Source: Candidatus Acidiferrales bacterium (GTDB lineage Bacteria; Acidobacteriota; Terriglobia; Acidiferrales; UBA7541). From it: DNA of 64,000 nucleotides. The translations under genes and the position numbers were made by a program. The DNA lies in assembly GCA_965197305.1 (NCBI GenBank), contig CBDAMS010000013.1:1199121-1263120 (forward strand). Reading direction: 5' to 3'. Below are positions 3,791-61,429 of the stretch, piece after piece (positions within the stretch are counted from its first letter, which is position 1; the number at the start of each line of letters is the position of its first letter). The notes below the pieces were generated by a model, which was not told the DNA's origin, made no database searches, and worked only from the letters and a program-made list of their open reading frames with translations.

Positions 3791-6022
3791 CTAAACGTGG
3801 AACACCCGTTCGATATCGGAAACACCGGATATGCGTTTAATACTCTTTAGGATACGTTCGAGTTGATCGCGGTCGGTGATGTCCAGGGTTGCTTCGATGC
3901 GCGCTTGCAGATCATCGGGCCTGCTTTCCAGCGACTGAATATTCGCTCCGGTGTCGCTGATGGCACTCGTGATGCTGGCGAGCACACCCGGCCGATCTTT
4001 GGCGCGAACCAGAAGCATCACCGGATAGGTGTCATGCACCGCACCACTCCACTGAACGGCAATGCGCCGCTCCGACTGGTAAAGCAGGTTCTGTACATTG
4101 GGGCAAACGGTATTATGAACGGCCACGCCCCGCCCTCGCGTAACGTATCCAATAATCGGGTCGCCAGGTATGGGATTGCAACACTTGGCCCGATACACCA
4201 TCAAATCGTCCTGGCCCAGTACCAGGATGGCTGGGTCGCGCATCCCGAGCATGCGCTTGACTGTGGAGACCAATGGCGCCGGCTGTTTGTCAGCCTCTCC
4301 AGGTTTGTCCTCAGCAACTCGCCCGGTCAGCTTCGTTAGAAATTGTCGCGCAGAATACTTGCCGTAGCCCAAATCCGCGTACAGGTCTTCGACCCTCGAA
4401 CGACCGTAATCGGCCGCCACGCGCAGGAAATCCTCATCTGAGAATTTCTTCAGGCTCATGCCCAAATGCCGCGCTTCTTTTTCGACCAGCCGCCGGCCGA
4501 CCGCGGTGGCTTGTTCGCGTTCATTGAAGTTGATCCACTGCCGAATCTTTATGCGGGCACGGGACGTCCGGACGAAACTGAGCCAGTCGCGGCTAGGGCC
4601 GTGCCCTTTTTGCGTGAGAATCTCTACCACGTCGCCATTTGACAGCGGACGGCGCAGCGGAACTATTTGCCCATTTACTTTGGCCCCCACACATTGGTGT
4701 CCGACTTCGGTGTGGATGGAATAGGCGAAATCAATCGGCGTGGCGCCGCGGGGCAGCGCCAATACTTTCCCCTTGGGTGTAAACGTATAGACTTCCTCGG
4801 GGTAGAGGTCTACCTTCAACGTCGAAAGAAAGTCCGACGGCTCCTGCATCTCCTGAGCCCACTCGACCAACTGTCGCATCCAGACGATCCGCTGGTCATC
4901 TTCGTCGGAAATTCTGGTGCCATCCTTATACCTCCAGTGCGCGGCCACGCCTTGCTCAGTGATGCGATGCATCTGCTGCGTCCGGATCTGCACCTCAAAC
5001 GGTTGGCCCGCATGGATCACGGTGGTGTGTAGCGATCGGTACAGGTTTGGACGAGGCATGGCGATGTAGTCTTTGAACCGCCCGGGCACGGGACGCCAGA
5101 GCTGATGAATCACACCGAGAGCAGTGTAGCAATTGCGCACCGAGTCGGTGATGATGCGCACGGCAAGCAAATCGTAGACCTGTTCCAGAGTGCGCTTCTG
5201 CCGTTTAGCCTTTTGGTGAATCGAGTAGAGTCGCTTAATGCGCCCTTCGACCCCAGCGGAAAGACCATTTTCCGCCAGGCTCTTGCGAATGGTTTCCTGC
5301 ACCTCCGCCAGGAATTTCTCAAACTCTTTTCTGTGCTCTGCGACGGTTGTCTCCAACTCGTGATAGGCCGTCGGCTCCAAGTGCTTGAAGGCCAGATCTT
5401 CGAGGTCGCCCCGGATCAAGCCCATCCCAAGGCGATGGGCGATGGGCGCGTAGATGTCGAGAGTCTCTCGCGCGATACGTTCCTGTTTTTCCGGAGGCAG
5501 AAAATCGAGCGTACGCATGTTGTGTAGCCGGTCGGCAAGCTTTATCAAAACGACGCGCACATCGTTCACCATCGCCAGAAGCATCTTTCGGACGCTTTCC
5601 ACCTGGCGAACTTCAGGGGAAACCAGCTCGAGGCGGCTGATCTTGGTCACGCCCTCGACCAGGCGAGCGATGTCCGGTCCGAAGCGCGTGGTCATTACCG
5701 CAAGCGGGATGCGCGTGTCTTCGACGACGTCGTGAAGTAACGCGGCACAAAGCGCGGTTACGTCGAGCCGGAGGTCGGCGAGAATGTGCGCAACCTCGAG
5801 CGGGTGCGACAGATACGGCTCGCCAGATTCACGAATCTGCAATTGATGCTGCTCGGCAGCAAATTCGAATGCGCGCCGAAGCAGATCAATGTCCTCGGGG
5901 TGGCTCTGCCCAACCCGTTCCAGCAAGCTTGCAAACCGCGCCTGGAGGCCCCGGTCAGCCCTCGCAGCCTTGCCCACTGCCACCAAGCGCGGCAGAGCAC
6001 TCGATTTCGTCAAATCTGCCAT
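3791..6022 (-). CDS. rel: bifunctional (p)ppGpp synthetase/hydrolase (RelA/SpoT homologue)
   Basis: 743 aa. HD hydrolase motif (HPLEVAHILADL...HDVVEDT), a RelA_SpoT synthetase core (YRSLHTTV...EVQIRT), a TGS region and a C-terminal ACT-like domain. Confidence 0.95.
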   Translation of the reverse strand: MADLTKSSALPRLVAVGKAARADRGLQARFASLLERVGQSHPEDIDLLRRAFEFAAEQHQLQIRESGEPYLSHPLEVAHILADLRLDVTALCAALLHDVVEDTRIPLAVMTTRFGPDIARLVEGVTKISRLELVSPEVRQVESVRKMLLAMVNDVRVVLIKLADRLHNMRTLDFLPPEKQERIARETLDIYAPIAHRLGMGLIRGDLEDLAFKHLEPTAYHELETTVAEHRKEFEKFLAEVQETIRKSLAENGLSAGVEGRIKRLYSIHQKAKRQKRTLEQVYDLLAVRIITDSVRNCYTALGVIHQLWRPVPGRFKDYIAMPRPNLYRSLHTTVIHAGQPFEVQIRTQQMHRITEQGVAAHWRYKDGTRISDEDDQRIVWMRQLVEWAQEMQEPSDFLSTLKVDLYPEEVYTFTPKGKVLALPRGATPIDFAYSIHTEVGHQCVGAKVNGQIVPLRRPLSNGDVVEILTQKGHGPSRDWLSFVRTSRARIKIRQWINFNEREQATAVGRRLVEKEARHLGMSLKKFSDEDFLRVAADYGRSRVEDLYADLGYGKYSARQFLTKLTGRVAEDKPGEADKQPAPLVSTVKRMLGMRDPAILVLGQDDLMVYRAKCCNPIPGDPIIGYVTRGRGVAVHNTVCPNVQNLLYQSERRIAVQWSGAVHDTYPVMLLVRAKDRPGVLASITSAISDTGANIQSLESRPDDLQARIEATLDITDRDQLERILKSIKRISGVSDIERVFHV

Positions 6023-31937: not shown

Positions 31938-32912
31938 GTGGGCCGTTACAATCGCGGAGACCGGACGGGCGCCGGGATCACAAGTGAGGGAGAAACGGGC
32001 AAGCCGTGGCGCGGCATTGATGTAACGGCAAAGGGTAGGCATTGGGCGCACAAACATGACGAGCTAGAACGTCTCAACCGCGAGGGGAAGATTCATTGGC
32101 CGAAAAAGAAAGAAGGGATGCCACGCCTTAAGCAGTATGAAAGTGAGTCCAAGGGAGTACCGTTGCAAGACGTTTGGACAGATATCAAACCCATCCACAA
32201 TCTCTCACCAGACAGGCTCGGCTATCCCACGCAGAAGCCCCGCGATCTACTGGGGCGCATAATCAACGCGAGCAGCAACCCAGGGGATGTGGTCTTTGAC
32301 CCATTTTGCGGTTGTGGGACTACCATCTACGCAGCTGAACCGAGTAACCGAAACTGGATCGGCTGCGACATAGCAATCTTAGCTATCAAGCTGGTGCGGG
32401 ACGTCCTGAAAGAGCGGCACAACCTCACAGAAGATCATGACTTCGAGATAAACGGCGTACCAGTAAGCACGGAGCAGGCCGTTGACCTGTTCAAGCGCGA
32501 CCCGTTCCAGTTCCAGCATTGGGCGATAGAGCGAGCAGGGGGATTCCCAAGCCAGAAGAAGGTAGCCGACAAAGGCATTGACGGCCACATTTTCTTCGAG
32601 ACCGCACGAGGGCAAGAGTCAATGGTCCCTTCGGTGAAGGGTGGGACCATCCGGCCAACTGATATCCGCGACCTTCGCGGTGTCCTGGAGCGTGAAGCGT
32701 CCGTCATGACTGGCTTCATCTCTCTAAGGGAGCCGAGTACGTCCATGCAGCGGGAAGCTGCGACTGCTGGCTACTACCGATACGCCGACCAGACCTACCC
32801 GAGAATCCAACTGCTCACCATCGCAGAGATTCTGGATCAGAAACGGGGATTCGAGACACCGACCAAGATCGGCTCCAAGATCGTGAAGGGGCAGGTTTCA
32901 TTCAAGTGGTGA
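31938..32912 (+). pseudogene. 5'-truncated N4/N6 DNA methyltransferase with a C-terminal restriction-endonuclease-like domain
   Basis: Carries the AdoMet motif region GYPTQKPRDLLGRIINASSNPGDVVFDPFCGCGTTIYAAE, but the catalytic (D/S)PP(Y/F) block that precedes it in beta-class MTases is absent. The reading frame begins 7 bp from the IS3-1 end. The C-terminus has GIDGHIFF...VPSVKGG (D...xK nuclease-like). Confidence 0.7.
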
Positions 32913-33375: not shown

Positions 33376-33602
33376 GTGCTCGACGACTACTCGCGCTACA
33401 TCCTGGCCTGGACGCTGCGGCCGACGATGCAAGCGACCGATGTGATGGAGACGTTGGACCTCGCGCGGGCGTCGATCGGGCCCCGGTCGTCCATCGACCG
33501 CGAGCCGGCCTAGGCGTGGGCATGCTGTTGGCCTGCCAAGTCCAGCGCCGACTGTTTGGGGTCGTCGAGAGCTTCTTCGGGGCGCGCTGGGTCAAGGGCC
33601 GG
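33376..33602 (+). repeat. 227-bp fragment of an IS3-type transposase gene (rve region), duplicate of 41021-41235
   Basis: Near-identical DNA (three substitutions and one 12-nt indel) encoding VLDDYSRYILAWTL...ATDVMETLDLA. Both copies end at the same nucleotide. Confidence 0.8.
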
Positions 33603-33630: not shown

Positions 33631-35025
33631 CTAGAACTGGCGCACGAAGCGCAACTCGACGCCGGTGCGCTTGTAGTCGTAGAGCTGCGCGTTGGTGGTC
33701 CGCACCTCGTTGACCAGCACGAGTTGCGGGCTGAAGCCTCGTATCGTGAAAGCGCGGTTGTAGACCGAGGCGCGCAGGCTGCGGGTGCGGTCCGCGCGCG
33801 AGACGCCGGCCGGCGTGTGCGGGAACCAGTTGCCCTGGTAGGCCATCCAGCGCAGCTGGCCGCTGGCGCCCACGGTGAAGCCCCACGGCAGGGCGACCGT
33901 GACCCCGGTGTGCACCCAGCGGCGGGCATGGCGCCATCTCTCCGTTTCAGGACTCTCCCGTCCGTATCCTACCGCCGCATCGGCCCGCACGGTCGGGGTT
34001 ATCATCCGGGCCCCGCCCAGCGCGAAATCCATGACCGGCCCGTCCAGGAACTTCAGTGTCCGGTACCCGCGGTCGTGCCAGGACGCCCGGGCGTTCGCCG
34101 TCACCAGCGGGGTGAACCTGTGTCTGGCTTCGGCGCGTACGCCGAGATCAAGATGATCGAATCCTCTGCCGCTCCAGCGGCGCCCGGCATTGGCCAGCAG
34201 GCTCACCTCGGTGTTCTCGCCCGCCAGCCAGCGCGGCCCGGCATGGCCCGACACGAACAGCTGATCGAACTCTCCCCCCGCATAGTCCCGCCGCGAGAGG
34301 TCGCCACCGATGCGCAGCCGCAGCCGGTCATCCAGCCGATGCTGATATTCCCCGCCCGTCCACATCGAGACGCCCACGCCCGATGTCGTCAGATCGTCCA
34401 CGTCGCGTCGAAACGGCAGGCCCTGGATATAGATGATCTCCTCGTCCGAGGTGAAGCCGATGTTGGTGTCCGGCGCCAGCGAAGCGCCGAGATACATGTT
34501 CCAGCGCCGGCGCGCCCGGCGCGCCCAGATCTCCGACAAGAAGCGCACGACATTGGCGGCGACCGCCGGCGGCGGCTTGCTCGCCAGGACCTGCTCGAAA
34601 GAACGGCGCGCCAGGCTGTCCGCGCCCTTAAGGAAGAACGACCGCGCCAGCTCCAGGCGGACGCGAAGCAGCCCGGGGTGCTCGACCAGCATGCTGTGGA
34701 AGGAGGCGATGGCCTCGTCCAGCAGCGCATCCCGCTTCGCCTCCGAAACATTCGGCTCTTGCGATGCCCCGATCGCCGCCAGGCCGATGAGGAAAACCAC
34801 GTCCGCCTGGACCGTCCGGCCCCGCGCCAGCGGCCGCAGCACGGCCAGGGCCTCGTCGAACCGGTCCGTCCGCATCAACGTCCGGGCCTCGGCGATGCCT
34901 GTTTCGGCAGACTGGCTAGAGGTCCCCGGAGATTGCGGCGCTTGCCCGGCGCTCCACGCAGGGGTGGAGAGGAAAAGGACGGCGGCGGCCGCCAGGACGC
35001 GAAGGAGAGGGCTGATGGCCATCAT
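33631..35025 (-). CDS. surface lipoprotein assembly modifier (Slam; DUF560 outer-membrane barrel, type XI secretion)
   Basis: Signal peptide (LAAAAVLFLSTPAWSA), a TPR-like N-terminal third, then the DUF560-type barrel: ...GASLAPDTNIGFTSDEEIIYIQGLPFRRDVDDLTTSGVGVS..., alternating beta-strand pattern, terminal ...YKRTGVELRFVRQF. Confidence 0.8.
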   Translation of the reverse strand: MMAISPLLRVLAAAAVLFLSTPAWSAGQAPQSPGTSSQSAETGIAEARTLMRTDRFDEALAVLRPLARGRTVQADVVFLIGLAAIGASQEPNVSEAKRDALLDEAIASFHSMLVEHPGLLRVRLELARSFFLKGADSLARRSFEQVLASKPPPAVAANVVRFLSEIWARRARRRWNMYLGASLAPDTNIGFTSDEEIIYIQGLPFRRDVDDLTTSGVGVSMWTGGEYQHRLDDRLRLRIGGDLSRRDYAGGEFDQLFVSGHAGPRWLAGENTEVSLLANAGRRWSGRGFDHLDLGVRAEARHRFTPLVTANARASWHDRGYRTLKFLDGPVMDFALGGARMITPTVRADAAVGYGRESPETERWRHARRWVHTGVTVALPWGFTVGASGQLRWMAYQGNWFPHTPAGVSRADRTRSLRASVYNRAFTIRGFSPQLVLVNEVRTTNAQLYDYKRTGVELRFVRQF

Positions 35026-35236
35026 CGAAGGTTCACCATGAACTCATCGGCGTACCGCGCTATGGGGTGTGTCACCTTTGACATCGTGGCTGCGACATTC
35101 CTTCCGGAAACGGAAGTCGAGGCGACAAGGCCTCGTGAAGGGTACAAGACCAGACCCGCGAGGGGTCGGGGGGTGCAGTTTTCTCAACACGACTTGGGAA
35201 CGCCGGGAGCGGGGTGCAGGTCTTTCCTCACGCCGC

Positions 35237-35268
35237 ACAAAAAAGAGGGCGGCCAGAGGGCCGCCCTC
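35237..35268 (-). terminator. strong rho-independent terminator between the lipoprotein gene and the Slam gene
   Basis: On the minus strand: GAGGGCGGCC-CTCT-GGCCGCCCTC (10-bp perfect stem, 35245-35268) followed by TTTTTT (35239-35244), 21 nt after the stop at 35289. Confidence 0.7.
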
Positions 35269-35288
35269 CCAGTCTTCCCGTTTAGCTA

Positions 35289-37496
35289 CTACTTCCGGTG
35301 CGCGCCGAAAGCGCCCACATAGCTCTCGGTGACGGTGTCATCTTCCATACCCGTAGTGTTGGTAACGCCGAAGGTGCCGGCGACGGAACCGGGGTGGTCG
35401 GTCGTCTTCTCGCCGTTGCCGAAGAAACCGCCGCTCCAGGTGCCATTAAAGGTGTGGGTCGCCAGACCCGGCCCCTCTTGCTGGCCCATTACGGCACTAC
35501 CGTCGAAGGTGTTTTCGCCAGTGGTAAGATTGGTCTTTACCAGATGGATAGGCTCCTCCATGGGGTCGCCGCCACCCACGGAGATGTTATCGATCGCTCC
35601 CTCGATGGTTCCAGCAGTATCAGCGTCGCCGAACTCGGCGGTCAGATTGGCGTCGCCATCGAAAGACGACACCCCGCTACCCGTCTTATGATGGGCCCCG
35701 ACTGCGGGACCGCTATACTTCGCTGTACCTTCGAGAGCTTCCACGTTGTTCGCGGTGAACGGCTGTCCACCCGTCGCGATGGCCCCGAAGGTATCGGCGC
35801 CAGCATCTGTTTCATCCAACCAGACACCGAAGAGGAGGTAGTCGGCCTTCGCAGCAGCTTCCACCTCCGTAACGCCTTCCCTTCTTCCGGAAAACGTGTA
35901 GCCGGTCGCGGCCGTGACCATGACATTGTCCCCGCTGCCCGTATAAGACAGTGAACAGGGGCTATCAGCACACGTGAACGTTCCCTTAATCGCGGGAGTA
36001 TTGTCCTGACCATCATGGTCGAAGCTACCCGGGAAGCTTGTCTCAGCATCAGTGAACTCACCCACAGACGCAATTGTTTCCGCCGTGACTGCAGCGTTCA
36101 CGACGGTCACCGCCGTTACCGCCACAACCTCTGGCGTCTCCTGCTCCTTGTCGGTGAAGACCAGCACACGCGCGCCTTCACTCGAAATGTCGAACATGTG
36201 CGGGAAATCGCCACCGACGTTGGTCTGCTTGGCATTGGGTTTGACAGCGGGATCGACGTCGGCATCGCCCACTGTGTCGGAGGTGATGTCGTTCTCGGCA
36301 CCGCCACCACTAACACCGGACCGGAACGTAATCTCCAGCAGGCTGGCCATCGCCTCGTCAACGTCGGCTGTATTGGGGTTATCTGGCGTGTCTACAGCCC
36401 ACGCAGCAGCAGCGGCGGCATCGCCGTCTTGATTGCCAGCTGCCATTGCAGCCGCTGCAGCGATAGCCGCCCCTACACTTGCCACCTCTACCTTCGCGTC
36501 GTCCTCGTCTTTGACGTCGGACGCATTCGCCGACGTGAACAAGCCGAGGACGTGCGTGCCGGCGGCCGTCTCCGCGGCTGCTGCCGCATCCATGGCGGTC
36601 ATATAGTTCATGCCCGCGCCCGTAGCCTGCTCTTCCGCGGTGGTCTTCGCGGCGTCCGCGACCCCCTGATACATCTGGGCGTCTGCGAGGGTGGTCGCAT
36701 CCATCGCACTCATGGATGCGGCATCCGCGGCGGCCACAGCCGTCCACGCGTCAGCCCGCGCCATTTCGGCCGCGGTCGCAGCCGTTTCGGCCGCCGTTGC
36801 CTGCGTGTCCGCCTCGCCGGAATCCGTCCGCGCGCGCACGGCACGGTCCGCTGCGTCCCGTGCTTCGACCGCCTTCGCTCTGGCGTCCTTCGACTTTTGG
36901 TCCGCCGAGTTGAAGTGGACTAGTGCTGCCGCCGCCGCCGCTTTCGCCATCTCCTGCGCAGCGGCGATGTCTCTCTCTTGTCGCAGCTGACCAGCCACAG
37001 CCGACGCCAATTCCGACTCACGCTGCAATTCCTGCGCTATCTCAAGTTGGTCGTCCGCATTCCCCTGCTCAGTCTCGGCGGTCGTCTGCTCGCCCTCCGC
37101 ATCGGCGGACATCGTGTCCGCCTCCGCCCGCTCAGAGGCCTCTTCGGCAGCAGTTGCGGCCGCATCGGCCGCATCGGCGGCTTCCTGAGCCGCCATCGCC
37201 TGCGCGGACTCATCGCCCGTGAGGTCAGCGACCGTGTCCGCCGCCTCCTGGGCGGCGCCAGCCGCCGTCCGAGCGTCCATGGCGGCCGTCATGGCCGCCT
37301 CTTTCGCGTCGGACAGTTTCCCCGCTTCGATAGAGGGATCAGGCGCAGGAGTGACAGCCGGCGGTGGTGCCGGTGCGATGACCGGCGCTACTACGGTTTC
37401 GCTGCCGCACGCGGCAAGGCCGAGCGCCAGCACGGCCGCGCAACAGATCTTCGCAATCTTCATCATCATCATCATCGGGTTCTTGTGTTTAAACAT
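35289..37496 (-). CDS. surface lipoprotein with a TbpB-like C-terminal handle/beta-barrel (candidate Slam cargo) and an Ala/Glu/Asp-rich N-terminal half
   Basis: Lipobox LALGLAAC (Cys30), a Pro/Ala linker, then about 270 aa dominated by A/E/D/T/Q. The C-terminal part has DYLLFGVW..., AKYSGPAVGAH..., FNGTWSGGFFGNG...SVAGTFG... and ends YVGAFGAHRK, the signature of TbpB/HpuA/fHbp-type barrels. Confidence 0.7.
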   Translation of the reverse strand: MFKHKNPMMMMMKIAKICCAAVLALGLAACGSETVVAPVIAPAPPPAVTPAPDPSIEAGKLSDAKEAAMTAAMDARTAAGAAQEAADTVADLTGDESAQAMAAQEAADAADAAATAAEEASERAEADTMSADAEGEQTTAETEQGNADDQLEIAQELQRESELASAVAGQLRQERDIAAAQEMAKAAAAAALVHFNSADQKSKDARAKAVEARDAADRAVRARTDSGEADTQATAAETAATAAEMARADAWTAVAAADAASMSAMDATTLADAQMYQGVADAAKTTAEEQATGAGMNYMTAMDAAAAAETAAGTHVLGLFTSANASDVKDEDDAKVEVASVGAAIAAAAAMAAGNQDGDAAAAAAWAVDTPDNPNTADVDEAMASLLEITFRSGVSGGGAENDITSDTVGDADVDPAVKPNAKQTNVGGDFPHMFDISSEGARVLVFTDKEQETPEVVAVTAVTVVNAAVTAETIASVGEFTDAETSFPGSFDHDGQDNTPAIKGTFTCADSPCSLSYTGSGDNVMVTAATGYTFSGRREGVTEVEAAAKADYLLFGVWLDETDAGADTFGAIATGGQPFTANNVEALEGTAKYSGPAVGAHHKTGSGVSSFDGDANLTAEFGDADTAGTIEGAIDNISVGGGDPMEEPIHLVKTNLTTGENTFDGSAVMGQQEGPGLATHTFNGTWSGGFFGNGEKTTDHPGSVAGTFGVTNTTGMEDDTVTESYVGAFGAHRK

Positions 37497-38133
37497 AGTT
37501 CACCGGCTCTCCTCAATAGAGTTCAAGAGTGAGTTCAAGAGGCGACCTCGAGACGAGGCCTCGCTCCTCCATCGTAAGCGTACAGCGTGGAACACACGTC
37601 TGTCAAGCTTTAATTAACGATCCGCGCCGTGTCGATACAGGCAATCCATATCCCCATCCCCGCGGTATCCCCGCGCGGATTCGGTCGGCGAAGGGAAACT
37701 TTGCATGTTGAGCGCCGCCCCCACAATCCGCCTTCAGGTCCGAATAGGCGATTCCCGCCTGAAAGACACCGAACCACACGGATTCTCCTAGCCTGCACCC
37801 TGTCTCCTCAAGGATCAGGTTGGTGGACGTTACCACACCGTTTCCGGGGAATGCAAGCGCCAAGTTCCAGAAAAATCTCAACCGGTTACCAACCGGCGGT
37901 GACAGGATTCCCGCCCCGAGACTCCTCTCGATCTCCCGGCAGCTTGAGAGCCGGGCCGAGAGAGGATGCTCCAACCGGAGATCCCGGGCGGGATCTCCGG
38001 TTCAGAGATCTACCGGCAGACGCAACCCGCCCAGACCAGCTGAGAATCGATCCGGCGGGCGCGAAGCGGCGCAACCGTTTGGGACCGGGCCGCTCTCCGC
38101 GTGCCGATTCGCCGCGGACATCCGAATCAGGCC

Positions 38134-38375
38134 TCAACGCTGAACTGTCACGCCGACATCCGTCCCGGAGCCTCCGGGCAGTATATCAGCTCCGATACTG
38201 GCGGCGACCCGGGCCGCGGATTCCTTCACCGAGTCCCGCGCGAGATGGGCGTAGCGGGCCGTCGTCTGGATCTTGCTGTGCCCGAGCAACTTGTCGATCA
38301 TCGGAAGGACCATACCGGACGCCAATGGCGGGTCTGTGATGCCCGAAGTGTAGCCGGTACGGCTCAGCCGTTGAA
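38134..38375 (-). pseudogene. C-terminal stub of a tyrosine recombinase/integrase
   Basis: ...LPMIDKLLGHSKIQTTARYAHLARD... contains the catalytic-Tyr box. Everything N-terminal of the (degenerate) RHT box is missing. Confidence 0.6.
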
Positions 38376-38386
38376 ATGGTAGCGCA

Positions 38387-38827
38387 TTGTCAGGTCGGGG
38401 GCCGTTCGGCTTGCGCCATCGTGTTTTCCGGGTCCGCCTCCACGTCGCCATCGTCTATGACCCAAATCAGCGTAAGAAGAAGGTTGAACAATACTATTTC
38501 GACAGCCGTCGTGGATGGAACGCTCAATCGCTGGACATTGGTTTTGCCCCGGACAGTCTGAAGATGACAACGATGGCTTACCCTGCTGTCGAGTTTCTCT
38601 GCCTCGTTGGACTTCAGCGTTTTCGGCCTGCCTCGACGACACATCGCCGCGTGTTTGTTTACCACGCGTGGCTCGACCCGCTGCCAGTGAGTACCGCCGC
38701 GGTTGCCGCGAGCGGCATGCTGTGGACGCGAGAGTCACAGGCTTATCGGTTCGAGAACGCGTTCCGAACCGTCCAGAAGAAGCACAAGTCCTTTCTTCTC
38801 GCAACGCCGATTGAAGATTCATCATGA
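38387..38827 (+). pseudogene. 3' remnant of the gene preceding cas7 (presumed large subunit Csx17/Cas8u)
   Basis: The ORF ends in an ATGA overlap with the cas7 start (38824-38827), which indicates translational coupling. In type I-U/I-G operons this position is the large subunit. The sequence itself was not recognised, and the N-terminal bulk is absent. Confidence 0.35.
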
Positions 38828-39879
38828 GCAACACACTGAACAAGTACGACAGCTGGTTGACCGGCGATGACAGCCCCGCGGCGCTTGTCATTCGGGAACA
38901 TGTGATGCCAGTCGAGGGACACGATGGTGCGCTGTTCCCGCCAACGTTTGCCGCCGGTGACGGTTCCCCCGGCGGGTACAATATCGACACATTCGGCGAT
39001 GAGAAGGATGGGAAGAACGTCTGCTTGATCGACAGCGTGGGATCGCAGGCGAATCGGATCGAGCCGATCTTTGCCGAGGAAAAGTACGCGGGATTGATCC
39101 CGCAGATCGTCGTGAAGGCCGGAGAGAAGGAGATCAACATCACCGAGGCGGGCCATCGCGCCGGCGACGCATCGATGCGATGTTCTGAATTGCAGGAGGA
39201 GTTACATGACGCGTTCCGGGCCGTGCTCAGCGGGGACTCCGAACCGCTGGCGAAAATCGCGCCCACGTCGCTGGTGTTCGGCGTCTGGGATTCTCGCGAC
39301 ACGCAGGCGAAGTTACCTCGGCTAGTGTCGTCTACGATCAGGGCGTTCGATGTACGGAAGATGACGCGAGGGGCCGCCTACATTCCACCGGTCGATTACT
39401 CCGACCTCGATGTTTTCAGCGAAACCGAAAAGGCCAAGACGGAAGGAAGCTCAAAGAGCCCGCTTGCACAGCGCGGGTTCGTGCACAATCTCGCATCCGC
39501 CTCCCACGGCGGCGTGATCGCGACCGGCGGCATCCGCCGAGATGCAACGCTCAGTCTTGCCGCTCTTCGTCTGCTCAAGGCTGGCGACGATGAGGGCACG
39601 CTTGCGCTGCGCCGCTACGTCTTCGGCCTGGCGCTGGTCGCGTTGACGGCCAACACGTCGATCTACCTTCGCCAGGGCTGCAACCTGGTCATCGATTCGG
39701 ACAAACCCCGCGAGTTCCACAAGGTGTACCGCGACGGTCGGCGAGAGCCGGCAACTATCTCGCATCCCGAGGCGATCGAGTTCGCCTCGGCCGCCGCCGA
39801 GACGTTCGGTAAGGGTGACAGTCGCACGGTTGCGTTCGACAAGCAGAAGGCCAAGGCGGACGTGAAGAAAAAGGATTGA
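38824..39879 (+). CDS. cas7: type I-U/I-G CRISPR-associated Cas7 (Csb1, GSU0053 family), full length
   Basis: 351 aa. ...ALFPPTFAAG...GGYNID...VCLIDSVGSQANRIEPIF..., ...SLVFGVWDSRDTQAKLPRLV..., ...GGIRRDATLSLAALRLL... match my recollection of conserved Csb1/Cas7u blocks. Followed by a csb2 stub. Confidence 0.7.
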   Translation: MSNTLNKYDSWLTGDDSPAALVIREHVMPVEGHDGALFPPTFAAGDGSPGGYNIDTFGDEKDGKNVCLIDSVGSQANRIEPIFAEEKYAGLIPQIVVKAGEKEINITEAGHRAGDASMRCSELQEELHDAFRAVLSGDSEPLAKIAPTSLVFGVWDSRDTQAKLPRLVSSTIRAFDVRKMTRGAAYIPPVDYSDLDVFSETEKAKTEGSSKSPLAQRGFVHNLASASHGGVIATGGIRRDATLSLAALRLLKAGDDEGTLALRRYVFGLALVALTANTSIYLRQGCNLVIDSDKPREFHKVYRDGRREPATISHPEAIEFASAAAETFGKGDSRTVAFDKQKAKADVKKKD

Positions 39880-39894
39880 CGATCGGAGCATCCC

Positions 39895-40110
39895 ATGTCG
39901 GATTACCTCTGTATCGCTGCGACGTTTCTGGATCCGCGTTTTCACGGACGGGGTGACGGCGGCGAACCCGAATGACCACCCTCACCGTTGCGGCTCTTGC
40001 AGGCGATCGTCGCCGCGAACGCCGATGACATCGGTAACATGGATGGAGACCTCGATCGGGCCTTGACGTGGCTTGAACTGCAGGGGCCGCCCCTTCTCCT
40101 GGCGCTGTAG
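39895..40110 (+). pseudogene. csb2: 5' stub of type I-U/I-G csb2 (Cas5/Cas6 fusion) with an in-frame TGA and truncation
   Basis: MSDYLCIAATFLDPRFHGRGDGGEPE-[TGA at 39973-39975]-PPSPLRLLQAIVAAN...ALTWLELQGPP. Csb2 proteins carry E-W-PPSP-RLFQALVAA here, so TGG became TGA. Only about 70 codons remain before the next IS. Confidence 0.65.
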
Positions 40111-41235
40111 GGGTTCAGACCCTTTTGGACCATTGAGCCGGCGAAAATAAGAGACACTTCCTGGCCAGGGTAGGAGGCACCCCATGCGCAAGGAAGCGTC
40201 ACCGGAGAAGGTCGTTCAAGAGATCCGGCGGAAGACCTGCCGACGGTTTTCGGCCGAAGAGAAGATTCGGATCGTGCTGGAGGGCCTGCGGGGCGAAGCA
40301 AGCATCGCCACGCTGTGCCGCAAGGAGAGCTTGGCACCAAATCTGTACTATCGGTAGGAGCAAGGAGTTTCTCGAAGCCGGCAAGAAGCGGTTGGTCGGC
40401 GACACGACCCGCGAGGCGACGTCGACGGAAGTCACCGATCTCCGCAAGGAAAATACTCACCTGAAGCAGCTCGTCGCGGAGATGGTGCTCGAAAACCTGC
40501 TGCTCAAAAAAACCGTGACGGCCTCCGGCTCGGAGGACGACACGTGCGACTGACGGCGGCGAAGAAGCAGGAGATGATCCGCCTGGTGGAAGGGTCGGAC
40601 CTGCCGGTCCGCCACACGCTGCGCGAGCTGCAGGTGCCGCGGTCGACCTTCTACACGTGGTATCGCCGGTATGCCGAGGGTGGGCTGAACGGACTCACCC
40701 CGCGCCCGTCGGGCGCCCGGCGCTATTGGAACCAGATTCCCCCACGCGTGCGGCACCGTGTGGTCGACGCCGCGCTGGCCGCGCCCGAACGCACGCCGCG
40801 TGAGCTGGCGTGGGCCTTCACGGACCGGGAGGGGCCTTTTCTCTCGGAACCAAGCGTGTATCGCATCTTGAAGGCGTACGACTTGATCACCAGTCCGGCC
40901 TTCGTCGTGCTCTCGGCGGTGAAAACGTTTGCCTATCCCACGCACCGCCCCAACGAGCTCTGGCAGACCGACTTCACATATCTCCATGTCGTCGGGTGGG
41001 GCTGGTATTACCTCTCGATGGTGCTCGACGACTACTCGCGCTATATCCTGGCCTGGACGCTGCAAGCGACCGATGTGATGGAGACGTTGGACCTCGCGCG
41101 GGCGTCGATCGGGCCCCGGTCGTCCATCGACCGCGAGCCGGCCGAGGCGTGGGCATGCTGTTGGCCTGCGAAGTCCAGCGCCGACTGTTTGGGGTCGTCG
41201 AGAGCTTCTTCGGGGCGCGCTGGGTCAAGGGCCGG
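40106..41235 (+). mobile_element. degenerate IS3-type element (HTH orfA with a 1-nt insertion; orfB cut inside the rve domain)
   Basis: orfA starts at ATG 40184 (AGGAGG SD) and reads MRKEASPEKVV...NLYYR, then TAG at 40355-40357. Removing one A restores ...YYRWSKEFLEAGKKRL... orfB (40544-) reads ...HRPNELWQTDFTYL...YYLSMVLDDYSRYILAWTL..., then homology is lost. The left boundary is approximate. Confidence 0.6.
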
Positions 41236-44460: not shown

Positions 44461-45225
44461 CGCACCAACCCGGGCAACCGCAAAGAGTACAAGCGCGTCA
44501 ACGGCCCGTTCACGCTCATCATGTTCTCAAGCAGCGCGAGCAAGCTCCCTTTCGGCAATCTGCCGCGCCTCTTGCTGGCCTGGCTGTGTACCGAAGCGGT
44601 ACGGACCCAAAGCCGTGTGCTGATCCTGGGGTCATCGCTTTCCGATTTCATGGATAAGCTCGGCATGGCTCCCGTCGGCGGCGCTCGGACGCGGCTCCGC
44701 AACCAGATGGACCGCCTGTACAACGCTCATGTCTCGCTGATCTACGAGGATGAGTGCGGCAAGGCCACCGTAAACTCGCTAATCGCCGATAGCACTGCGT
44801 TCTGGTGGAATCCGCGACGGCCCGACCAGCCTTCACTCTGGGACAGCAAGATCGAACTCAGCGAGAAGTTTTTCAACGAGATCATCCGCCACCCCGTACC
44901 GCTCGACATGAACATCCTCACGGCCCTCAAACGCTCCACGTTGGGCCTAGACCTGTATCTCTGGCTGACCTACCGCACCTTCGCGCTCCGTGCTCCGCTA
45001 CGCCTCACTTGGAAGCACCTGTACCGCCAGTTCGGCGCACACCCGGCCAAGGCCAGCGACAACAACACCGTTCAAGCCTTCCGTTACAAGGTTCTCCGCG
45101 AGTTGAAGAAGATCAAGTTGGCCTGGAAGGACTTGAACTACTCGACGGCTCCGGGGGTCTTGATCTTGCATCCCTCGACTCCTGCCATCCCTCCGGCTTC
45201 GGGGCATCCCGAATTAGTCAGCTAA
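44461..45225 (+). pseudogene. plasmid-type replication initiator (RepA-like), 5'-truncated at the IS6 boundary
   Basis: The frame is open from the IS6 end: ...KEYKRVNGPFTLIMFSSSASKLPFGNLPRLLLAWLCTEAVRTQSRVLILGSSLSDFMDKLGM...GGARTRLRNQMDRLYNA...LDLYLWLTYR... matches my recollection of the 'plasmid-encoded RepA' family. Confidence 0.55.
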
Positions 45226-55977: not shown

Positions 55978-56179
55978 CGATTCCACCCTAACCCTCCCCA
56001 CACGTCGCCACGATCGGGCTGGGGTGGCTTCCGCTCCGGCCTAACCGCGCCGCCTGAACGGAGGCGCAGGCCTCCGCTCCAGCCACCCCAGCCCGATCCA
56101 GCAAATCAACCCCTTCCCTCACCGGGAGTGATCTATTTTTCCTCCGCCCCTCTGGCCTAGTTTTTCTCCGCCCTTGACA

Positions 56180-57522
56180 GCAGTGGAGGAAGTGCAGAAG
56201 TTGAGTCAGGTGATCCAGATTGATGAGGGCAAGATACAGGCGCACCTGGGGGAAGTGGTACGGAGCACGGTGGAGGAGACGCTGAACGCTTTGCTGGATG
56301 CAGAGGCGGACCGTCTCTGTCGTGCCGAGTGCTACGAACGCACGGAAGCCCACCAGGACACGCGAGCAGGTTCCTACCAGCGGCAGTTACACACCCAGGC
56401 CGGGGAAGTCAGGTTGAAGGTTCCGAAGCTGCGAAGCTTGCCATTCGAGACGGCCATCATCGAGCGCTACCGCCGACGCGAAAGTTCGGTGGAAGAAGCC
56501 CTGGTGGAGATGTATGTGGCCGGGGTGAGCGTACGGCGCGTGGAAGATATCACCGAAGCGTTGTGGGGCACGCGGGTCAGTCCGAGCACCGTCAGTGAGC
56601 TGAACCAGAAGATCTACGGGCAGATTGAGGCCTGGCGTAACCGGCCGATCGCGGGTCGCTATCCGTATGTGTTTCTAGACGGTCTGTGGCTGAAGCGGAG
56701 CTGGGGCGGTGAAGTGCGGAGCGTGTCCATTCTGGTGGCCATCGCTGTGAACGAGGAAGGGTTCCGCGAAGTGCTGGCGGTAGCGGAAGGGTCGAAGGAA
56801 GATAAGCCAGTTGGACAGCCTTTCTGCGGCACCTGAAAGAGCGTGGGTTAGCAGGGGTGCGGCTGTTCATTTCCGACAAGTGCCTGGGGCTGGTGGAGAG
56901 CCTCGGAGAGTTTTATCCGGAAGCGCTCTGGCAGCGGTGCGCGGTGCATTTTTATCGCAACGTGTGGACGGCCGTACCCACCAGCAAGGTGAAAGCAGTG
57001 GCGGCCATGCTCAAGGCCATTCACGCGCATGAGGATCGTGCCGCAGCGCGGCTGAAGGCCGAGCAGGTGGTGGCCAAGCTCCGGGAGATGAAGCTGGCCG
57101 ATGCCGCCGAGGTGGTGCGGACCAGGATCGAAGAGACACTGTACTACTACATGTTTCCGCGGCAGCACTGGCGGAGCCTGCGCACGAACAACCCGCCGGA
57201 GCGCATCCTGCGCGATGTGCGGCTAAGAACGCGAGTGGTCGGAGCCTTCCCGGATGGCAAGTCAGCGCTGATGCTGGCCGCGTCCAATCTGCGTCACGTC
57301 GCCGGCACCAAGTGGGGCACGAGGCGGCATGAACGCACGCACAACAACTTTCGGCTCCCCCTCGGGGGAGCCGAATACCGTGACCACCAGACCTATGCCT
57401 CAGACAATGTGCGAAAAACGCTGGACACTACCTCAGCCCCCCCCGTAACTCCAGATCCTCCGATGCGCGTTTATCCTCCCTTCGATTGCCTAACGCCTCC
57501 CCCCAGTCTCTTAACATTCTAG
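56180..57522 (+). mobile_element. IS256-family element remnant (transposase frameshifted; 5' end abutted by IS21)
   Basis: ORFs 56174-56836 and 56857-57522 together give ...LNALLDAEADRLC...YERTEA...RESSVEEALVEMYVAGVSVRRVEDIT...YVFLDGLWLK... / ...LRHLKERGLAGVRLFISDKCLGLVES...WQRCAVHFYRNV... A missing base near 56800 (…EDK[A]SWTAFLRHL…) splits the gene. The right boundary is unresolved (about 57.43-57.54 kb). Confidence 0.7.
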
Positions 57523-57574: not shown

Positions 57575-60500
57575 TTAGAAGCTTAAGCGAAGGCCAAACT
57601 GCATCTGCCGCGCGCCAAAGAGGTTAGAGCTAGTCGTCCTCGCGTTTTGGAAAGAGGACCGCGCAGCCATACACGTGTTGCTGTGGGATACCGATGGACA
57701 TGTGGATGACGTCGCGCTGGGCTGCACATACGTGAACGCGCTGTCGAATACTCTTTGTACGAGTGTGGTGTTAAGTATATTAAAGGCCTCCGCGCGAACT
57801 TCGAACGCGACACCCTCGGTAATCGCGAATTGTTTTGCCAATCGCACGTCAAAATTTACAATCTTCGGCTGTGTAAATGAGTTGCGAGGCAACCAAGCGG
57901 CCCGCCCGCCCATGGGATTGCCCGAACTTGAGATCAGGATGCCTGTCATTCCGCCCAGCAACCCGCGACTGTCATCCGGACAGCTCCCTGTCGGCCCCAG
58001 ACACTGGATGCGGCTGCTGCCGATTAGAGCAGAGTAACGCGTTCCGCCGGAAATCGTAGCAGTATTAGAAATACTCCAGCCGCTTAGTACGCCCCGTACG
58101 AAAGCATTGGAAACGTTACTGCCGAAGCCGGGCTGCCACACGAGGCTAGAGGTAAAACGGTGGCGAACATCGTTAGTCGAATAGCCTTCTTCCCCGAAAG
58201 GCAACAGCGGCGTGCTGCCTCGGTTGAAGGGATCAAGGAAGCCGTGAGTGGTGTAGAAGCCCTCGCCTCCGGTTAATACTCCCGCCTGTCCACCATCTCT
58301 GGACCTGCTCAAGGTGTAATTCGCCACTACTTCGAGCCCGTAACTAGTAGGAGCTTTCCGCACCGTCAGTATAAGGCCATTGTAGCGTTGCGAGATGCCG
58401 CTGTAGTTGGTGTAAATGGCACCGGTGGGGGTGTCAATTCGCGTGGTAAAAAACGGCACCGTCGAGGTCAGTTGGGTGACACCCGAGCTGTTGACAACGT
58501 CGTAGGTCTTGGTTGCCGTCGAAGGCGCGACGTTGACATCCGAATTATACGGGAGATGCAAACCACGGACAAAATGGTAACTGGCCGACGCGCTGATACT
58601 CCCCGGCAGTTCATGCTCGATCGCCACTTGAGCTTGGTAGGCCCGCGGCCGCTGCTGGGTTGGATCCATTGCGCGAGTGTTGCAGGGGCACACGTTTTGG
58701 CCTTCGGGAAAGTCCAACCCACGACCGGCCACCGGCTGTTCCGACTCACTGAGAGTTGAGGAAGTGAAAGGCCTACCCGGATGAACGTCCTGCAGGTCAA
58801 AAACTATATTCGGGAATGTAAACCCAGGGGTGTACTCAGGACTGATACAATCGGTTGGAATGCAATTAATCTGCGGGTTGTCGCCACCATTGGAAAACGT
58901 CTTAAAGGTGCTTGCGTTGCTCTTCGAGTAGTAGAGGCCTCCGCCTACTCGGAGGACCGTATTGTCCGCGAAATTCCACGCAACGCCTATGCGCGGCTGA
59001 ACGGCTTTCTTTTCAGATGGCCACTTTTCAGTGTAGATAGCCAGAAGGGGAGTACTTGTATTATGGGTGTGTGGCCGAGGGAAGACTTGAAGGTCATACC
59101 GCACGCCAATATCGATGGTCAAGTTCGCACGTGCTTTCCAGGTATCCTGGAAATACCATGCATATTCTGTGCTGTAGAAATTCTCTATATAGGTATCCGG
59201 GGCAACAAATCCCTGGGGTTTAGCAAACCCCGGAGCAAATTCCACGGTACCTCCGGATGAATCTCCGGCATGGTTATAGTTAGCCCAGTGTTTTCCCGTT
59301 AATCCATCGCCAACATCGACCCCATAAAGATCAAGCAGCCAGCCGCAAAAAGTTGTGTTCGCGCGTTGGGCACTCGAGCCGAGGAAACTGGGGCCTAAAT
59401 CGCAGCCGCCGGCATCGGTCACAATTGCAGGAAGATTGATTGCGCTGCTGTATCTATACTCGCCCGCCGAGTTAGCGGCACTTCTAGCATCGTACCTGAT
59501 TCGATTCCAATCAAAACCGGTCTTGAAGGTGTGAACGCCTTTAGTGAACGAGAAATTGTCGCTAATCTGATGGCGTCGCTCGTTGGTGCGTGTGGAGCCA
59601 TTGTCTGAGCCATAAGTAAACAGGCCCGGAAGGATGACCCCCGGATTGCCCCCGATGTTCGCCGGCGGCCTAAATGTGAGGTCTTTGCCCCATTGATAGC
59701 GAAACTGATTGACTTTGTCTACGCCAATCACCGTCGTCCAATTCCCGATTACAAATCGGTTCTGATTGAAGGTCACCTGGGCTCCCAGAATACTGCTGCC
59801 GGATCCCGCCCTCGGCTCTTTCCAATCTCTATTATTGACGACCACGCTGAGAGTATTGGCCTGATCCACCGTGTAGTCGAGTTTAATCAATGACACGTCC
59901 TGTCGCAGGTTTCGCGGGAAAGTGCCGATGACTTCGGTCGTAACAAAATTTTTGGCGGCTGCGCACTGTGCTTCGGAGAGGCCGGACGCAGGATTAGGGC
60001 AGGCCAAATTGCTTATAGACGGGTTTAGTTGCCGGGTCTCCACAGCAATCGGGTTTCTCTTGCGATATCCATCATAGTTTGCGAAGAAAAATAGTCGGTC
60101 TCTAGCAATCGGGCCGCCCACAGCGAATCCATACTGGTTCTGCTGACGAACCAGCTTTATCGGCTCCTGATTAATTGCTTCCGAGTTCTTTTTGGCGACC
60201 GGGTCGAGGGCGTTGAAGATGGGGTTGCGTAAATTCCAGAAGAGCTCGCCATGAAAAGTGTTGGTGCCTGACTTCGTGACGGCATTGACCAGGCCGCCCG
60301 CCGCCTGCCCAAGTTCCGCAGTGAAAGCGCCCGATGAGACCTGGAATTCCCGAATGGCAGCTCCGCTGTAGACGTACCCGTCGTCACCCGGGCGTCCGCG
60401 CGCCGTCCCATAATAGGAACTGTTATTGTTTGCGCCGTCGACCGAATTGTTGTTGTACAGCCCGTTGAGTCCGTGGAACGACATTTGACCACTGGTTCCA

Positions 60501-61036
60501 TCCGGAGTTACACCAGGGGTGAGCAACACAAATTGCTCCCACCGACGTGAAGTCGTTGGTAGGTTGTCGACCAAATTCTCAGTGACGTTTTGCGACAGCT
60601 GAGTTTTCTCCGTCTCAAGGACAGGTGCTTCCGTGGTGACGGTCACCAATGCTTGCTGCGCGGCCACCGGCATCTCCACGTCTATCTTGAGCGTCTGCCC
60701 CACCCCCAACTGCACGCCCTGGCGCGTGACAGTCGCAAAACCCGTCTGGCTCGCCGTCACGTTATAGGTGCCCGGCGGCAACAATAGCATGACATACAAA
60801 CCCACATTGTTCGACGTGGTTGATTTTTCCACCCCGGTGTCGATGTTGCGAATCACGACGTTCGCCCCGGCCATGGCCGCGCCCTGCGCATCGGTCAACG
60901 TTCCAGTGAATGCTCCGGTCGCCAATTGACCGAATGCGGAACTTACAAAGCCGGCCAATAACACCACCACGGCCAACCCCACCACTCGAACGCGCCGAAG
61001 CTGCCTAGACCCCAAAAACCCCTCTAGTACACGCAT
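57575..61036 (-). CDS. TonB-dependent outer-membrane receptor with an N-terminal carboxypeptidase-regulatory-like domain
   Basis: The ATG at 61036 follows AAGGAGG. Signal peptide, a CarboxypepD_reg-like module (…ANVVIRNIDTGVEKSTTSNNVGLYVMLLLPPGTYNVTASQTGF…), a large barrel, terminal ...MQFGLRLSF. Confidence 0.85.
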   Translation of the reverse strand: MRVLEGFLGSRQLRRVRVVGLAVVVLLAGFVSSAFGQLATGAFTGTLTDAQGAAMAGANVVIRNIDTGVEKSTTSNNVGLYVMLLLPPGTYNVTASQTGFATVTRQGVQLGVGQTLKIDVEMPVAAQQALVTVTTEAPVLETEKTQLSQNVTENLVDNLPTTSRRWEQFVLLTPGVTPDGTSGQMSFHGLNGLYNNNSVDGANNNSSYYGTARGRPGDDGYVYSGAAIREFQVSSGAFTAELGQAAGGLVNAVTKSGTNTFHGELFWNLRNPIFNALDPVAKKNSEAINQEPIKLVRQQNQYGFAVGGPIARDRLFFFANYDGYRKRNPIAVETRQLNPSISNLACPNPASGLSEAQCAAAKNFVTTEVIGTFPRNLRQDVSLIKLDYTVDQANTLSVVVNNRDWKEPRAGSGSSILGAQVTFNQNRFVIGNWTTVIGVDKVNQFRYQWGKDLTFRPPANIGGNPGVILPGLFTYGSDNGSTRTNERRHQISDNFSFTKGVHTFKTGFDWNRIRYDARSAANSAGEYRYSSAINLPAIVTDAGGCDLGPSFLGSSAQRANTTFCGWLLDLYGVDVGDGLTGKHWANYNHAGDSSGGTVEFAPGFAKPQGFVAPDTYIENFYSTEYAWYFQDTWKARANLTIDIGVRYDLQVFPRPHTHNTSTPLLAIYTEKWPSEKKAVQPRIGVAWNFADNTVLRVGGGLYYSKSNASTFKTFSNGGDNPQINCIPTDCISPEYTPGFTFPNIVFDLQDVHPGRPFTSSTLSESEQPVAGRGLDFPEGQNVCPCNTRAMDPTQQRPRAYQAQVAIEHELPGSISASASYHFVRGLHLPYNSDVNVAPSTATKTYDVVNSSGVTQLTSTVPFFTTRIDTPTGAIYTNYSGISQRYNGLILTVRKAPTSYGLEVVANYTLSRSRDGGQAGVLTGGEGFYTTHGFLDPFNRGSTPLLPFGEEGYSTNDVRHRFTSSLVWQPGFGSNVSNAFVRGVLSGWSISNTATISGGTRYSALIGSSRIQCLGPTGSCPDDSRGLLGGMTGILISSSGNPMGGRAAWLPRNSFTQPKIVNFDVRLAKQFAITEGVAFEVRAEAFNILNTTLVQRVFDSAFTYVQPSATSSTCPSVSHSNTCMAARSSFQNARTTSSNLFGARQMQFGLRLSF

Positions 61037-61429
61037 TGCTCTTCCTCCTTCGATAATCTTAAGAGTATCCGCGAATTGGTGCAACCGCGGAATACACTAC
61101 CTTCCTCTTCCCATGAGTATGCTGGACATTATGCTGGACCCCAATTTATAGAAGGGTTCCCCTAGCAGAAGAGACACAAGATGTGCACCGAACTCTGACA
61201 TAAGGCCTTCATACAGCTTCGCTCATGACGTTCCAGGCGAATTCTAAGGATTTTGCCCACCAGCAGGTACTGTATTGCAGCGACTGGTAACAATTTGATG
61301 CCCGAATGCTAAAAGCGCACACCGAATGGAGTGGCCGGATGCTCCCTGGCGGGTTCACCCGTATTTAATTCTGAGGCATTGGTGCATGAATCGGCGTAAG
61401 CGGGCACGCTAGCATCGGCGGAGGGTTCC

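Follow-up and report, generated by a model that had tools for sequence, protein, structure and literature searches.

A probable type XI secretion module with a conserved translocator and a diversifying lipoprotein cargo in a Terriglobia acidobacterium

Type XI secretion has been studied almost exclusively in Proteobacteria, chiefly in pathogens and symbionts, and its cargo includes vaccine antigens and nutrient scavengers. The stretch of DNA analysed here, hereafter the window, comprises 64,000 nucleotides of a Candidatus Acidiferrales bacterium (contig CBDAMS010000013.1, positions 1,199,121 to 1,263,120), and in it a first-pass annotation had recognised a translocator of the Slam/DUF560 type beside a TbpB-fold lipoprotein, which it took for a foreign acquisition. 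What is such a pair doing in an acidobacterium, and did it arrive recently, is it decaying, or does it belong there? Our analysis makes it probable that the pair is a chromosomal type XI secretion (Slam) module of a soil acidobacterium of the class Terriglobia, and the explanation as a whole, in which the module is an established family of this lineage and not a recent proteobacterial import, is likewise the one we consider probable. The translocator-cargo pair itself is ordinary; it is unusual in its host outside the Proteobacteria, in the mobile DNA around it and in the rate at which its cargo changes. Two things are new here: a transporter that stays conserved beside a hypervariable cargo, and the architecture of integrases and inverted repeats found at related loci.

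We begin with the translocator.

33631..35025, minus strand: Slam-type outer-membrane translocator (type XI secretion system, T11SS; DUF560/SlipAM), 464 amino acids (Pfam, AlphaFold2, Foldseek)

ORF 33631-35025 (-) is a canonical Slam/DUF560 protein. It is intact and contains all the motifs that the first-pass annotation had quoted, and the three parts proposed there, a signal peptide, a TPR-like N-terminal third and a DUF560 barrel, were all recovered. Residues 175-464 match the full length of the Pfam model SlipAM (PF04575; profile 1-288 of 288) at 60.4 bits (cutoff 22; E 2.7e-16), and TPR_19 scores 28.5 bits, above its cutoff of 25, while the TPR_Slam model reaches 18.9 bits, under its cutoff of 35.2. 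The signal peptide is recognisable by eye (MMAISPLLRVLAAAAVLFLSTPAWS/A) and the protein ends in ...RFVRQF, with a terminal Phe. The AlphaFold2 model, built with 42 homologues, has a mean pLDDT of 84, with barrel blocks mostly at 85-97, and shows a signal helix, seven TPR-like helices (residues 37-170) and 14 long strands (residues 174-463) with one short internal hairpin, which is the TPR-plus-14-strand fold that had been expected. The nearest barrel-only structures found by Foldseek, in a PDB copy without a Slam structure, were OmpG (TM 0.72 on the target), CymA and FadL, all of which are 14-stranded barrels. PDB sequence searches with either protein of the pair or with the family profiles returned nothing useful, and no relatives of the translocator were found among viral contigs. 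Look-ups by exact sequence gave no record of the translocator, of the cargo or of an SPFH protein from the core of the window.

The cargo gene, ORF 35289-37496 (-), lies directly upstream on the same strand and ends 263 bp before the translocator start. It encodes 735 amino acids, is intact in the window and again holds every quoted motif. Its leader, its domains and the gap that follows it are laid out as follows.

37503..37560, minus strand: cargo leader, with the hairpin GGCCTCGTCTCGAGGTC, a duplicated TTGAACTC motif and the ribosome-binding site (RBS) GGAGAG (DNA alignment; Tandem Repeats Finder (TRF) repeat at 37519-37541)
37407..37496, minus strand: signal peptide and lipobox, MFKHKNPMMMMMKIAKICCAAVLALGLAAC30 (read from the sequence)
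36210..37406, minus strand: residues 31-429, low-complexity region rich in Ala, Asp, Glu and Thr, plus linker (translation)
35763..36209, minus strand: residues 430-578, beta-rich handle with 11 predicted strands, holding the conserved DYLLFGVW (AlphaFold2)
35292..35762, minus strand: residues 579-735, predicted 8-strand beta-barrel, TbpB_B_D/FHBP_C-like (AlphaFold2, Foldseek)
35243..35270, minus strand: terminator-like hairpin, 12-bp stem with 9 G-C pairs and a T-run, between the cargo stop and the translocator start (terminator scan)

The lipobox reads L-A-A-C30 and is followed by GSE in the translation; this region is conserved across related loci, where it aligns with the signal-peptide-coding arms of inverted repeats described below. 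The Ala-rich region gave weak coiled-coil-type matches only and is presumed, from its composition, to form a helical stalk. For residues 430-735 the AlphaFold2 model (pLDDT 88.6) runs through 11 strands and a short helix into exactly eight long strands (model residues 161-305), and by analogy with known Slam cargo the C-terminal barrel is presumed to be the domain that the translocator recognises. The four best bacterial matches of the cargo in Foldseek are all TbpB chains (3pqu_A, 9clt_B, 9pa8_B and 4o3w_A; probability 0.98-1.0). Among its relatives, TbpB_B_D and FHBP_C are the only recurrent Pfam families, the former occurring in 12 and the latter in 11 of 43 close relatives and TbpB_B_D in 15 of 61 wider relatives with a best E of 5e-7, in both sets at sub-threshold scores. 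An exhaustive profile search placed the handle-barrel family at 4,471 clusters at 50% identity, some of whose proteins carry up to seven copies of the barrel.

Several results weigh against a TbpB-type fold. The Foldseek match is weak (E 2e-3 to 2e-2, TMq about 0.36, with a large root-mean-square deviation, the whole multi-domain model having been aligned), PsbO barrels score like TbpB in the same search, no Pfam or NCBIfam model, TbpB_B_D and FHBP_C included, matches the cargo even as fragments at E<=10, and a profile of the cargo family finds nothing significant among PDB sequences. Of the TbpB-fold claim in the first-pass annotation, then, the lipobox, the all-beta C-terminus and the handle followed by eight strands stand with moderate support, whereas the supposed signature escapes every curated model applied to the cargo itself. 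We regard the C-terminal part as likely to be a TbpB-type barrel, on support that is moderate.

The sister and related loci (contigs) compared with the window bear labels from L001 to L011, and in most of the related loci the pairing of the two genes recurs. A SlipAM gene directly preceded by a cargo-like gene is present in L003 (twice), L004, L005 (twice), L006, L008 and L011, and in L010 an insertion sequence (IS) lies between the two. The cargo leader of the window is a 'type 1' upstream sequence, a kind found beside integrase 3' ends at related loci. The hairpin at 35243-35270, a strong one, may set unequal expression of the two genes, which would fit a high level of cargo and a low level of translocator; a scan for the sigma-70 consensus around the cargo gave matches at or below background. 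In the window the cargo gene has only short, weak repeats by TRF. Cargo-like genes at L004 (695-1771 and 5319-6262) and L007 (5828-6241) carry long in-frame tandem repeats in their N-terminal halves, with units of 45 nt (18 copies), of 90 and 42 nt, and of 12-21 nt coding for Ala and Asp.

By homology to Slam1 and TbpB of Neisseria (PMC9090332, PMC5449769), the cargo would be exported by Sec, lipidated at Cys30 and kept unfolded in the periplasm, where the adjacent TPR-plus-14-strand-barrel protein would recognise it through its C-terminal 8-strand barrel. It would then be threaded across the outer membrane, fold outside and remain lipid-anchored at the cell surface, presenting a long Ala-rich stalk with a handle-plus-barrel head; exposure of the cargo at the surface is thus what we infer from the known systems. 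As the first-pass annotation had remarked, the cargo has no TonB-dependent receptor beside it, the nearest being more than 20 kb away at 57575-61084. No recognisable ligand-binding lobe was seen in the cargo either. Because the cargo has neither a receptor partner nearby nor such a lobe, a role at the surface as coat, adhesin or decoy is more likely for it than one as co-receptor in the uptake of nutrients.

The module resembles the Slam systems of Neisseria and Moraxella (Slam1-TbpB, Slam2-HpuA and Slam-fHbp) in most respects. As in those systems, the translocator consists of a signal peptide, a periplasmic TPR region and a DUF560 barrel of 14 strands, the cargo is a lipoprotein, here with a predicted handle followed by an 8-strand barrel at the C-terminus (there PF04575 with TbpB_B_D, PF01298, or FHBP_C, PF08794, cargo), the cargo gene lies directly beside that of the translocator, and a variable cargo goes with a conserved translocator. 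Unlike them, the host here is an uncultured acidobacterium from metagenomes and not a mucosal proteobacterium of animals, the translocator shares only 24-29% identity with (plasmid-borne) proteobacterial Slams, and the curated barrel models fail to recognise the cargo. The cargo also lacks the TonB-dependent receptor partner of TbpB, LbpB and HpuA, as does fHbp, and has a long Ala-rich N-terminal half in place of the N-lobe of TbpB. In the passages of a recent survey that bear on the subject (Microb Genom 2025, PMC12282271), the closest parallels are the 'Pls-like' and 'disordered N-terminus' classes of predicted T11SS cargo of Proteobacteria, which likewise combine a lipoprotein signal, a helical or low-complexity region, a handle and an 8-strand barrel in function-unassigned proteins encoded beside a DUF560 gene. 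The window's cargo differs from those classes, as those passages describe them, in its phylum and in having no EEARKA-type repeats, and neither a link to tyrosine integrases nor evidence of diversifying selection, both of them seen here, appears in those passages.

Six close copies of the pair could be compared, namely the window, L001, L002, two in L005 (L005a and L005b) and L006, the sister copies being consensus sequences from long-read metagenomes. Across L001, L002, L005a, L005b and L006 the translocator protein is 95.3-96.6% identical, full-length in every copy and with its C-terminal Phe kept, whereas the adjacent cargo gives high-scoring segment pairs (HSPs) mostly at 64-83% identity, with one frameshifted HSP in L001 at 46%. 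At the DNA level the translocator and its flanks are 97-100% identical, while the handle-barrel half of the cargo is 78-91% identical in a mosaic pattern, the handle being the most divergent part between sister alleles. Nei-Gojobori estimates for the translocator are dN 0.011-0.019 and dS 0.014-0.025. For the cargo, counted by the same method in the window's frame with linker and indel-adjacent codons excluded, all 15 allele pairs give a dN/dS (omega) in the range 1.4-3.7, and a one-sided binomial test for omega>1 yields p<0.05 in every one of them. Substitutions in 14 close cargo alleles are also unevenly placed: entropy is 0.79 in loops and 0.32 in predicted strands (p=3e-9), and the barrel strands are almost invariant.

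One alternative holds that the block is a decaying remnant in an IS graveyard, free of constraint, and that the divergence of the cargo reflects relaxed selection, recombination and assembly noise. Much of what weighs against our interpretation belongs here. The cargo frame is broken in all five sister copies, within codons ~350-420 (window ~36237-36449), where a linker joins the Ala-rich half to the handle, so that some of these copies may be pseudogenes, although this would push omega towards 1 and not above it. The translocator has a dN/dS of about 0.8-1.0, at shallow divergence and on few substitutions. The omega tests are pairwise and non-independent, and they come from a simple counting method applied to long-read metagenome consensus. 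The integrase beside the cargo is only a stub and the cas genes near it are fragmentary, and the raised dS of the cargo handle (0.075-0.114) points to imported sequence as well. On the other hand, both ORFs are intact in the window, omega lies significantly above 1, and not at about 1, in every pair even without the linker and indel-adjacent codons, the avoidance of predicted strands is not what neutral decay would produce, and the translocator is kept whole in each copy. The frame breaks are copy-specific, with a different indel pattern in each sister, and all of them occur in long-read metagenome consensus, where strain mixtures yield indels; they may be assembly error at a strain-variable site, real decay or split genes. 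Since omega exceeds 1 and the variability is concentrated in regions outside the strands, diversifying selection is favoured over neutral decay, which we consider unlikely as an account of the block, and the cargo pattern fits a functional, exposed protein.

Two other sources of cargo variation were rejected. Mutagenesis by a diversity-generating retroelement does not agree with variation that extends over more than 1 kb and whose substitution spectrum is without marked adenine bias; nor was a reverse transcriptase noticed close to the window's unit. Slippage in a homopolymer was set aside as no such tract is present where the frames break and each copy has indels of its own.

A conserved transporter with a fast-changing cargo mirrors the antigenic diversity of TbpB and fHbp, here without a vertebrate immune system. 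The absence of such an immune system from this setting suggests that the selection comes from phages, predators or competitors, and we infer that an external agent of this kind drives the diversification of the cargo.

Whether the module is foreign to its genome was the second question, and the host has to be placed before it can be answered. The left 30 kb of the window are a housekeeping core (RelA/SpoT, SecD, SecF, RpoD, DnaG, MutS2 and others) which had been judged non-proteobacterial in appearance, and this is borne out by RpoD and by two sister metagenome-assembled genomes (MAGs), which place the host in Acidobacteriota, class Terriglobia. RpoD has relatives at 99% and 97%, and its named matches at 89% are 'Acidobacteria bacterium' and 'Candidatus Acidoferrales bacterium', the latter belonging to Acidobacteriota, Terriglobia, by lineage look-up. 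Among GTDB representatives a near-identical translocator was found in two 'Terriglobia bacterium' MAGs only, by a scan for near-exact peptide words that is informative on near-identical copies and silent on distant relatives; both MAGs match the window at 96-99% over 12-14 kb.

The module sits in a unit of 7.6 kb bounded by fragments of a transposase gene.

33376..33602, plus strand: left end of the unit, 227 bp from a truncated rve-type transposase gene (repeat search)
38134..38451, minus strand: tyrosine integrase remnant next to the cargo, the C-terminal ~60 residues including ...LLGHSKIQTTARYAHL (Pfam, tblastn)
38824..39879, plus strand: orphan cas7-type gene, intact (Cas_GSU0053, E 1.9e-41; Pfam)
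41021..41235, plus strand: right end of the unit, the other copy of this 227-bp transposase fragment (repeat search)

The IS debris that the first-pass annotation had reported at 33376-33602 is therefore one copy of a direct repeat (families D1/D2) whose two copies are 92-98% identical and spaced 7633-7645 bp apart, and the transposase fragment at both ends was also found by blastn in L001, L002 and L011. The integrase stub, previously placed at 38134-38375, is real and longer than reported. It matches Phage_integrase at positions 143-169 of 172 with an E of 9.4e-4, below cutoff, and by tblastn it is 94-100% identical to the same stub in L001, L002, L005 and L006. The cas7-type gene within the unit also stands beside the cargo-translocator pair in L005 (twice) and L011. 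A Cas_GSU0054 fragment lies at ~39884-40099, placed by colinearity with L011, and no further cas genes were noticed near the cas7-type gene. The mobile surroundings described at first sight proved to be wider still, as the unit is embedded in a ~27-kb IS-rich stretch with transposases of the IS3, IS6, IS21 and IS256 types, a methylase and RepA_C.

The settings of the unit differ among the sister loci. In L005 (4260-17368) it occurs whole, with cas7 fragment, integrase stub, cargo, translocator and IS fragment, as two tandem copies with a period of ~7.66 kb and different cargo alleles, which suggests that the unit expands and contracts by recombination between its direct repeats. In L001 and L011 the block is kept and the neighbours past the IS elements differ. 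The pair lies among RepA_C, ParA, TraG and VirB11-like genes in L006, where HigB is also present, and near TrwC/SSB in L008; a RepA_C gene is located ~7 kb from the module in the window (44521-45225, plus strand), as well as in L006 (12479-13447) and L011 (947-1651). These neighbours suggest that the module once rode, or still rides, on a plasmid or an integrative conjugative element. No tRNA gene was found in the window by a tRNA scan, so that there is no tRNA-type att site, and within 30-46 kb there is no Rfam match and no known leader RNA.

These surroundings are also part of the case for a recently acquired foreign patch, ultimately proteobacterial and brought by mobile elements into an unrelated genome, as the first-pass annotation had proposed. 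That case can further call on the GC3 of the translocator (0.862, the highest in the window), on a patch GC of 0.653 against a core mean of 0.599, and on the passages of PMC12282271 and PMC8406197 that describe T11SS as predominantly proteobacterial. The composition, however, is mild. The almost exclusive use of G/C-ending codons holds for the translocator and not for the cargo, whose GC3 of 0.709 is ordinary within the range of the other window genes (0.56-0.80), and the supposed distinctness of the patch was not upheld, for its GC falls within the core range of 0.565-0.659 and its correlation with the core in tetranucleotides is 0.89, where the core itself spreads over 0.87-0.97, the remainder of the window at 28-64 kb being no less deviant. 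The translocator has more than 2,000 relatives, and among the 120 listed identity is 55-94%, often with several paralogues on one contig, whereas plasmid-borne proteobacterial Slams are at best only 24-29% identical; sister genomes carry the block at 96-99% identity. A recent origin from Proteobacteria does not agree with these figures. The first-pass annotation had itself held that common close homologues in the host phylum would speak against an import, and for the host lineage they are indeed common; one point that weighs on the other side is that taxonomy among the more than 2,000 relatives is assigned for the sister lineage only, most of them carrying no taxon label. With so many relatives, and with proteobacterial Slams so distant, a recent cross-phylum transfer is unsupported, and we regard the foreign-patch explanation as quite unlikely. 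Movement of the module inside its own lineage is supported instead.

The remaining alternative, a TPR-barrel exporter for another substrate (for instance a polysaccharide, as with PgaA, BcsC or PelB) that stands beside a lipoprotein gene by accident, is highly improbable: the TPR-plus-barrel exporters BcsC, PelB and PgaA-type are among the best Foldseek matches of the translocator, but in Pfam the protein is assigned specifically to SlipAM, along the full profile, its model shows 14 strands against the 16 of BcsC and PgaA barrels, no polysaccharide-synthesis genes lie nearby, and the order of lipoprotein and then SlipAM gene recurs where translocators are only 50-71% identical to that of the window.

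The locus is a canonical translocator-cargo pair in Acidobacteriota and belongs to a clade with thousands of metagenomic relatives that the curated cargo models miss, and surveys restricted to Proteobacteria or based on TbpB_B_D therefore under-count T11SS. In the literature searched there was no report of T11SS or DUF560 in Acidobacteriota, although one published survey table lists DUF560 proteins of Nitrospira.

The integrase stub next to the cargo opens a further question, as its intact counterparts adjoin cargo genes at more distant loci, where the translocator shares only 67-71% identity with the window's. By tblastn the stub matches the C-termini of these intact integrases at 75% (L003), 82% (L004) and 63% (L007). 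Intact integrase pairs are present in L003, L004, L008 and apparently L007, and the pair of L010 is partly fragmented. In L003, L004 and L007 the pair is of P4-type tyrosine integrases and is bracketed by inverted repeats of 101-117 nt, 84-91% complementary and 3.0-3.3 kb apart.

L003, 2712-2812 and 5840-5940: inverted-repeat arms
L004, 1739-1848 and 5167-5276: inverted-repeat arms
L007, 2357-2473 and 5695-5811: inverted-repeat arms

The arms span the RBS, the start codon and the signal peptide, up to the lipobox Cys, of outward-facing lipoprotein genes, and they are more alike within a locus than between loci. In L003 and L004 both arm-bearing genes are called; of the two arms in L007, one coincides with the start of a called gene, and the other falls where a cargo start has probably been miscalled. 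L008 and L010 have no second arm, and in the window a repeat search found neither an intact integrase nor a second arm, only the integrase stub. The integrase pair is reversed in L003 relative to L004 and L008 when the translocator is aligned forward, in different genomes and not within one population. The integrase segment of L004 (1827-5255) is 92% identical to that of L008 (4481-7942) and the translocators only 76%, and the integrase segment has therefore been exchanged independently of the genes that it flanks. On the integrase-start side, the intergenic sequence holds the motif GCGCATTGGAGCGCAC twice, about 100 nt apart (L003 2834-3030, L004 4951-5181, L008 7636-8078), and among the same conserved blocks ACGTATGTCGTAGAA just upstream of the lipoprotein RBS. 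Judged from sequence conservation, the GCGCATTGGAGCGCAC and ACGTATGTCGTAGAA blocks are candidate arm-type binding sites of the integrases or promoter elements; scans for the sigma-70 consensus about these integrase segments, in L003, L004 and L008, gave nothing above background.

One reading of this arrangement, which we put forward tentatively and hold to be possible but doubtful, is that members of this acidobacterial T11SS clade may use site-specific inversion to switch the expression or identity of their cargo. A segment of ~3 kb with two P4-type integrase genes would flip between the repeats at the lipoprotein 5' ends, the flip would swap upstream control regions between two cargo genes, and the window would be a 'locked' derivative in which the recombinase has decayed. 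Were this so, inversion together with a cargo dN/dS above 1 would amount to a system of the antigenic-variation type for a Slam-exported protein in a free-living soil bacterium. The pairs may instead be mobile elements in their own right, like Tn554-type pairs or RIT trios (PMC3414803). A comparison with BIM elements was dropped because the source paper gives BIM as one recombinase and an unrelated protein, not two integrases. Whichever applies, integrase pairs flanked by repeats of lipoprotein 5' ends are a testable lead on the variation or movement of surface proteins.

The inversion reading has a precedent in the switches of Mollicutes, namely vpma/Xer1 of M. agalactiae and vsa/HvsR of M. 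pulmonis (PMC2268961). As in those systems, tyrosine recombinase genes lie beside genes for variable surface lipoproteins, at the related loci and not in the window; the conserved 5' ends of lipoprotein genes form inverted repeats at these loci, and the intervening segment is met in both orientations, here between genomes. The likeness is one of gene arrangement. The recombinases here are unrelated to those of Mollicutes, being P4-type with an Arm-DNA-binding domain and paired, there are only two lipoprotein genes per locus, the candidate invertible segment carries the recombinase genes themselves, and each cargo would need an outer-membrane translocator.

Three further genes of the window deserve mention. 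The TonB-dependent receptor at 57575-61084 (-) is a protein of 1,169 amino acids with an N-terminal CarboxypepD_reg domain and an OMP_b-brl_4 barrel, an architecture typical of Acidobacteriota; it lies more than 20 kb from the module and has no evident link to it. Between an IS3 transposase and the 7.6-kb unit, ORF 31938-32912 (+) encodes the C-terminal part of an N6/N4 DNA methylase domain followed by NA-iREase1 (NACHT-associated inactive restriction endonuclease). Two ORFs at 56174-57522 (+), which cover profile positions 4-208 and 227-365, make up a split gene of the IS256 family (Transposase_mut), probably a frameshifted transposase.

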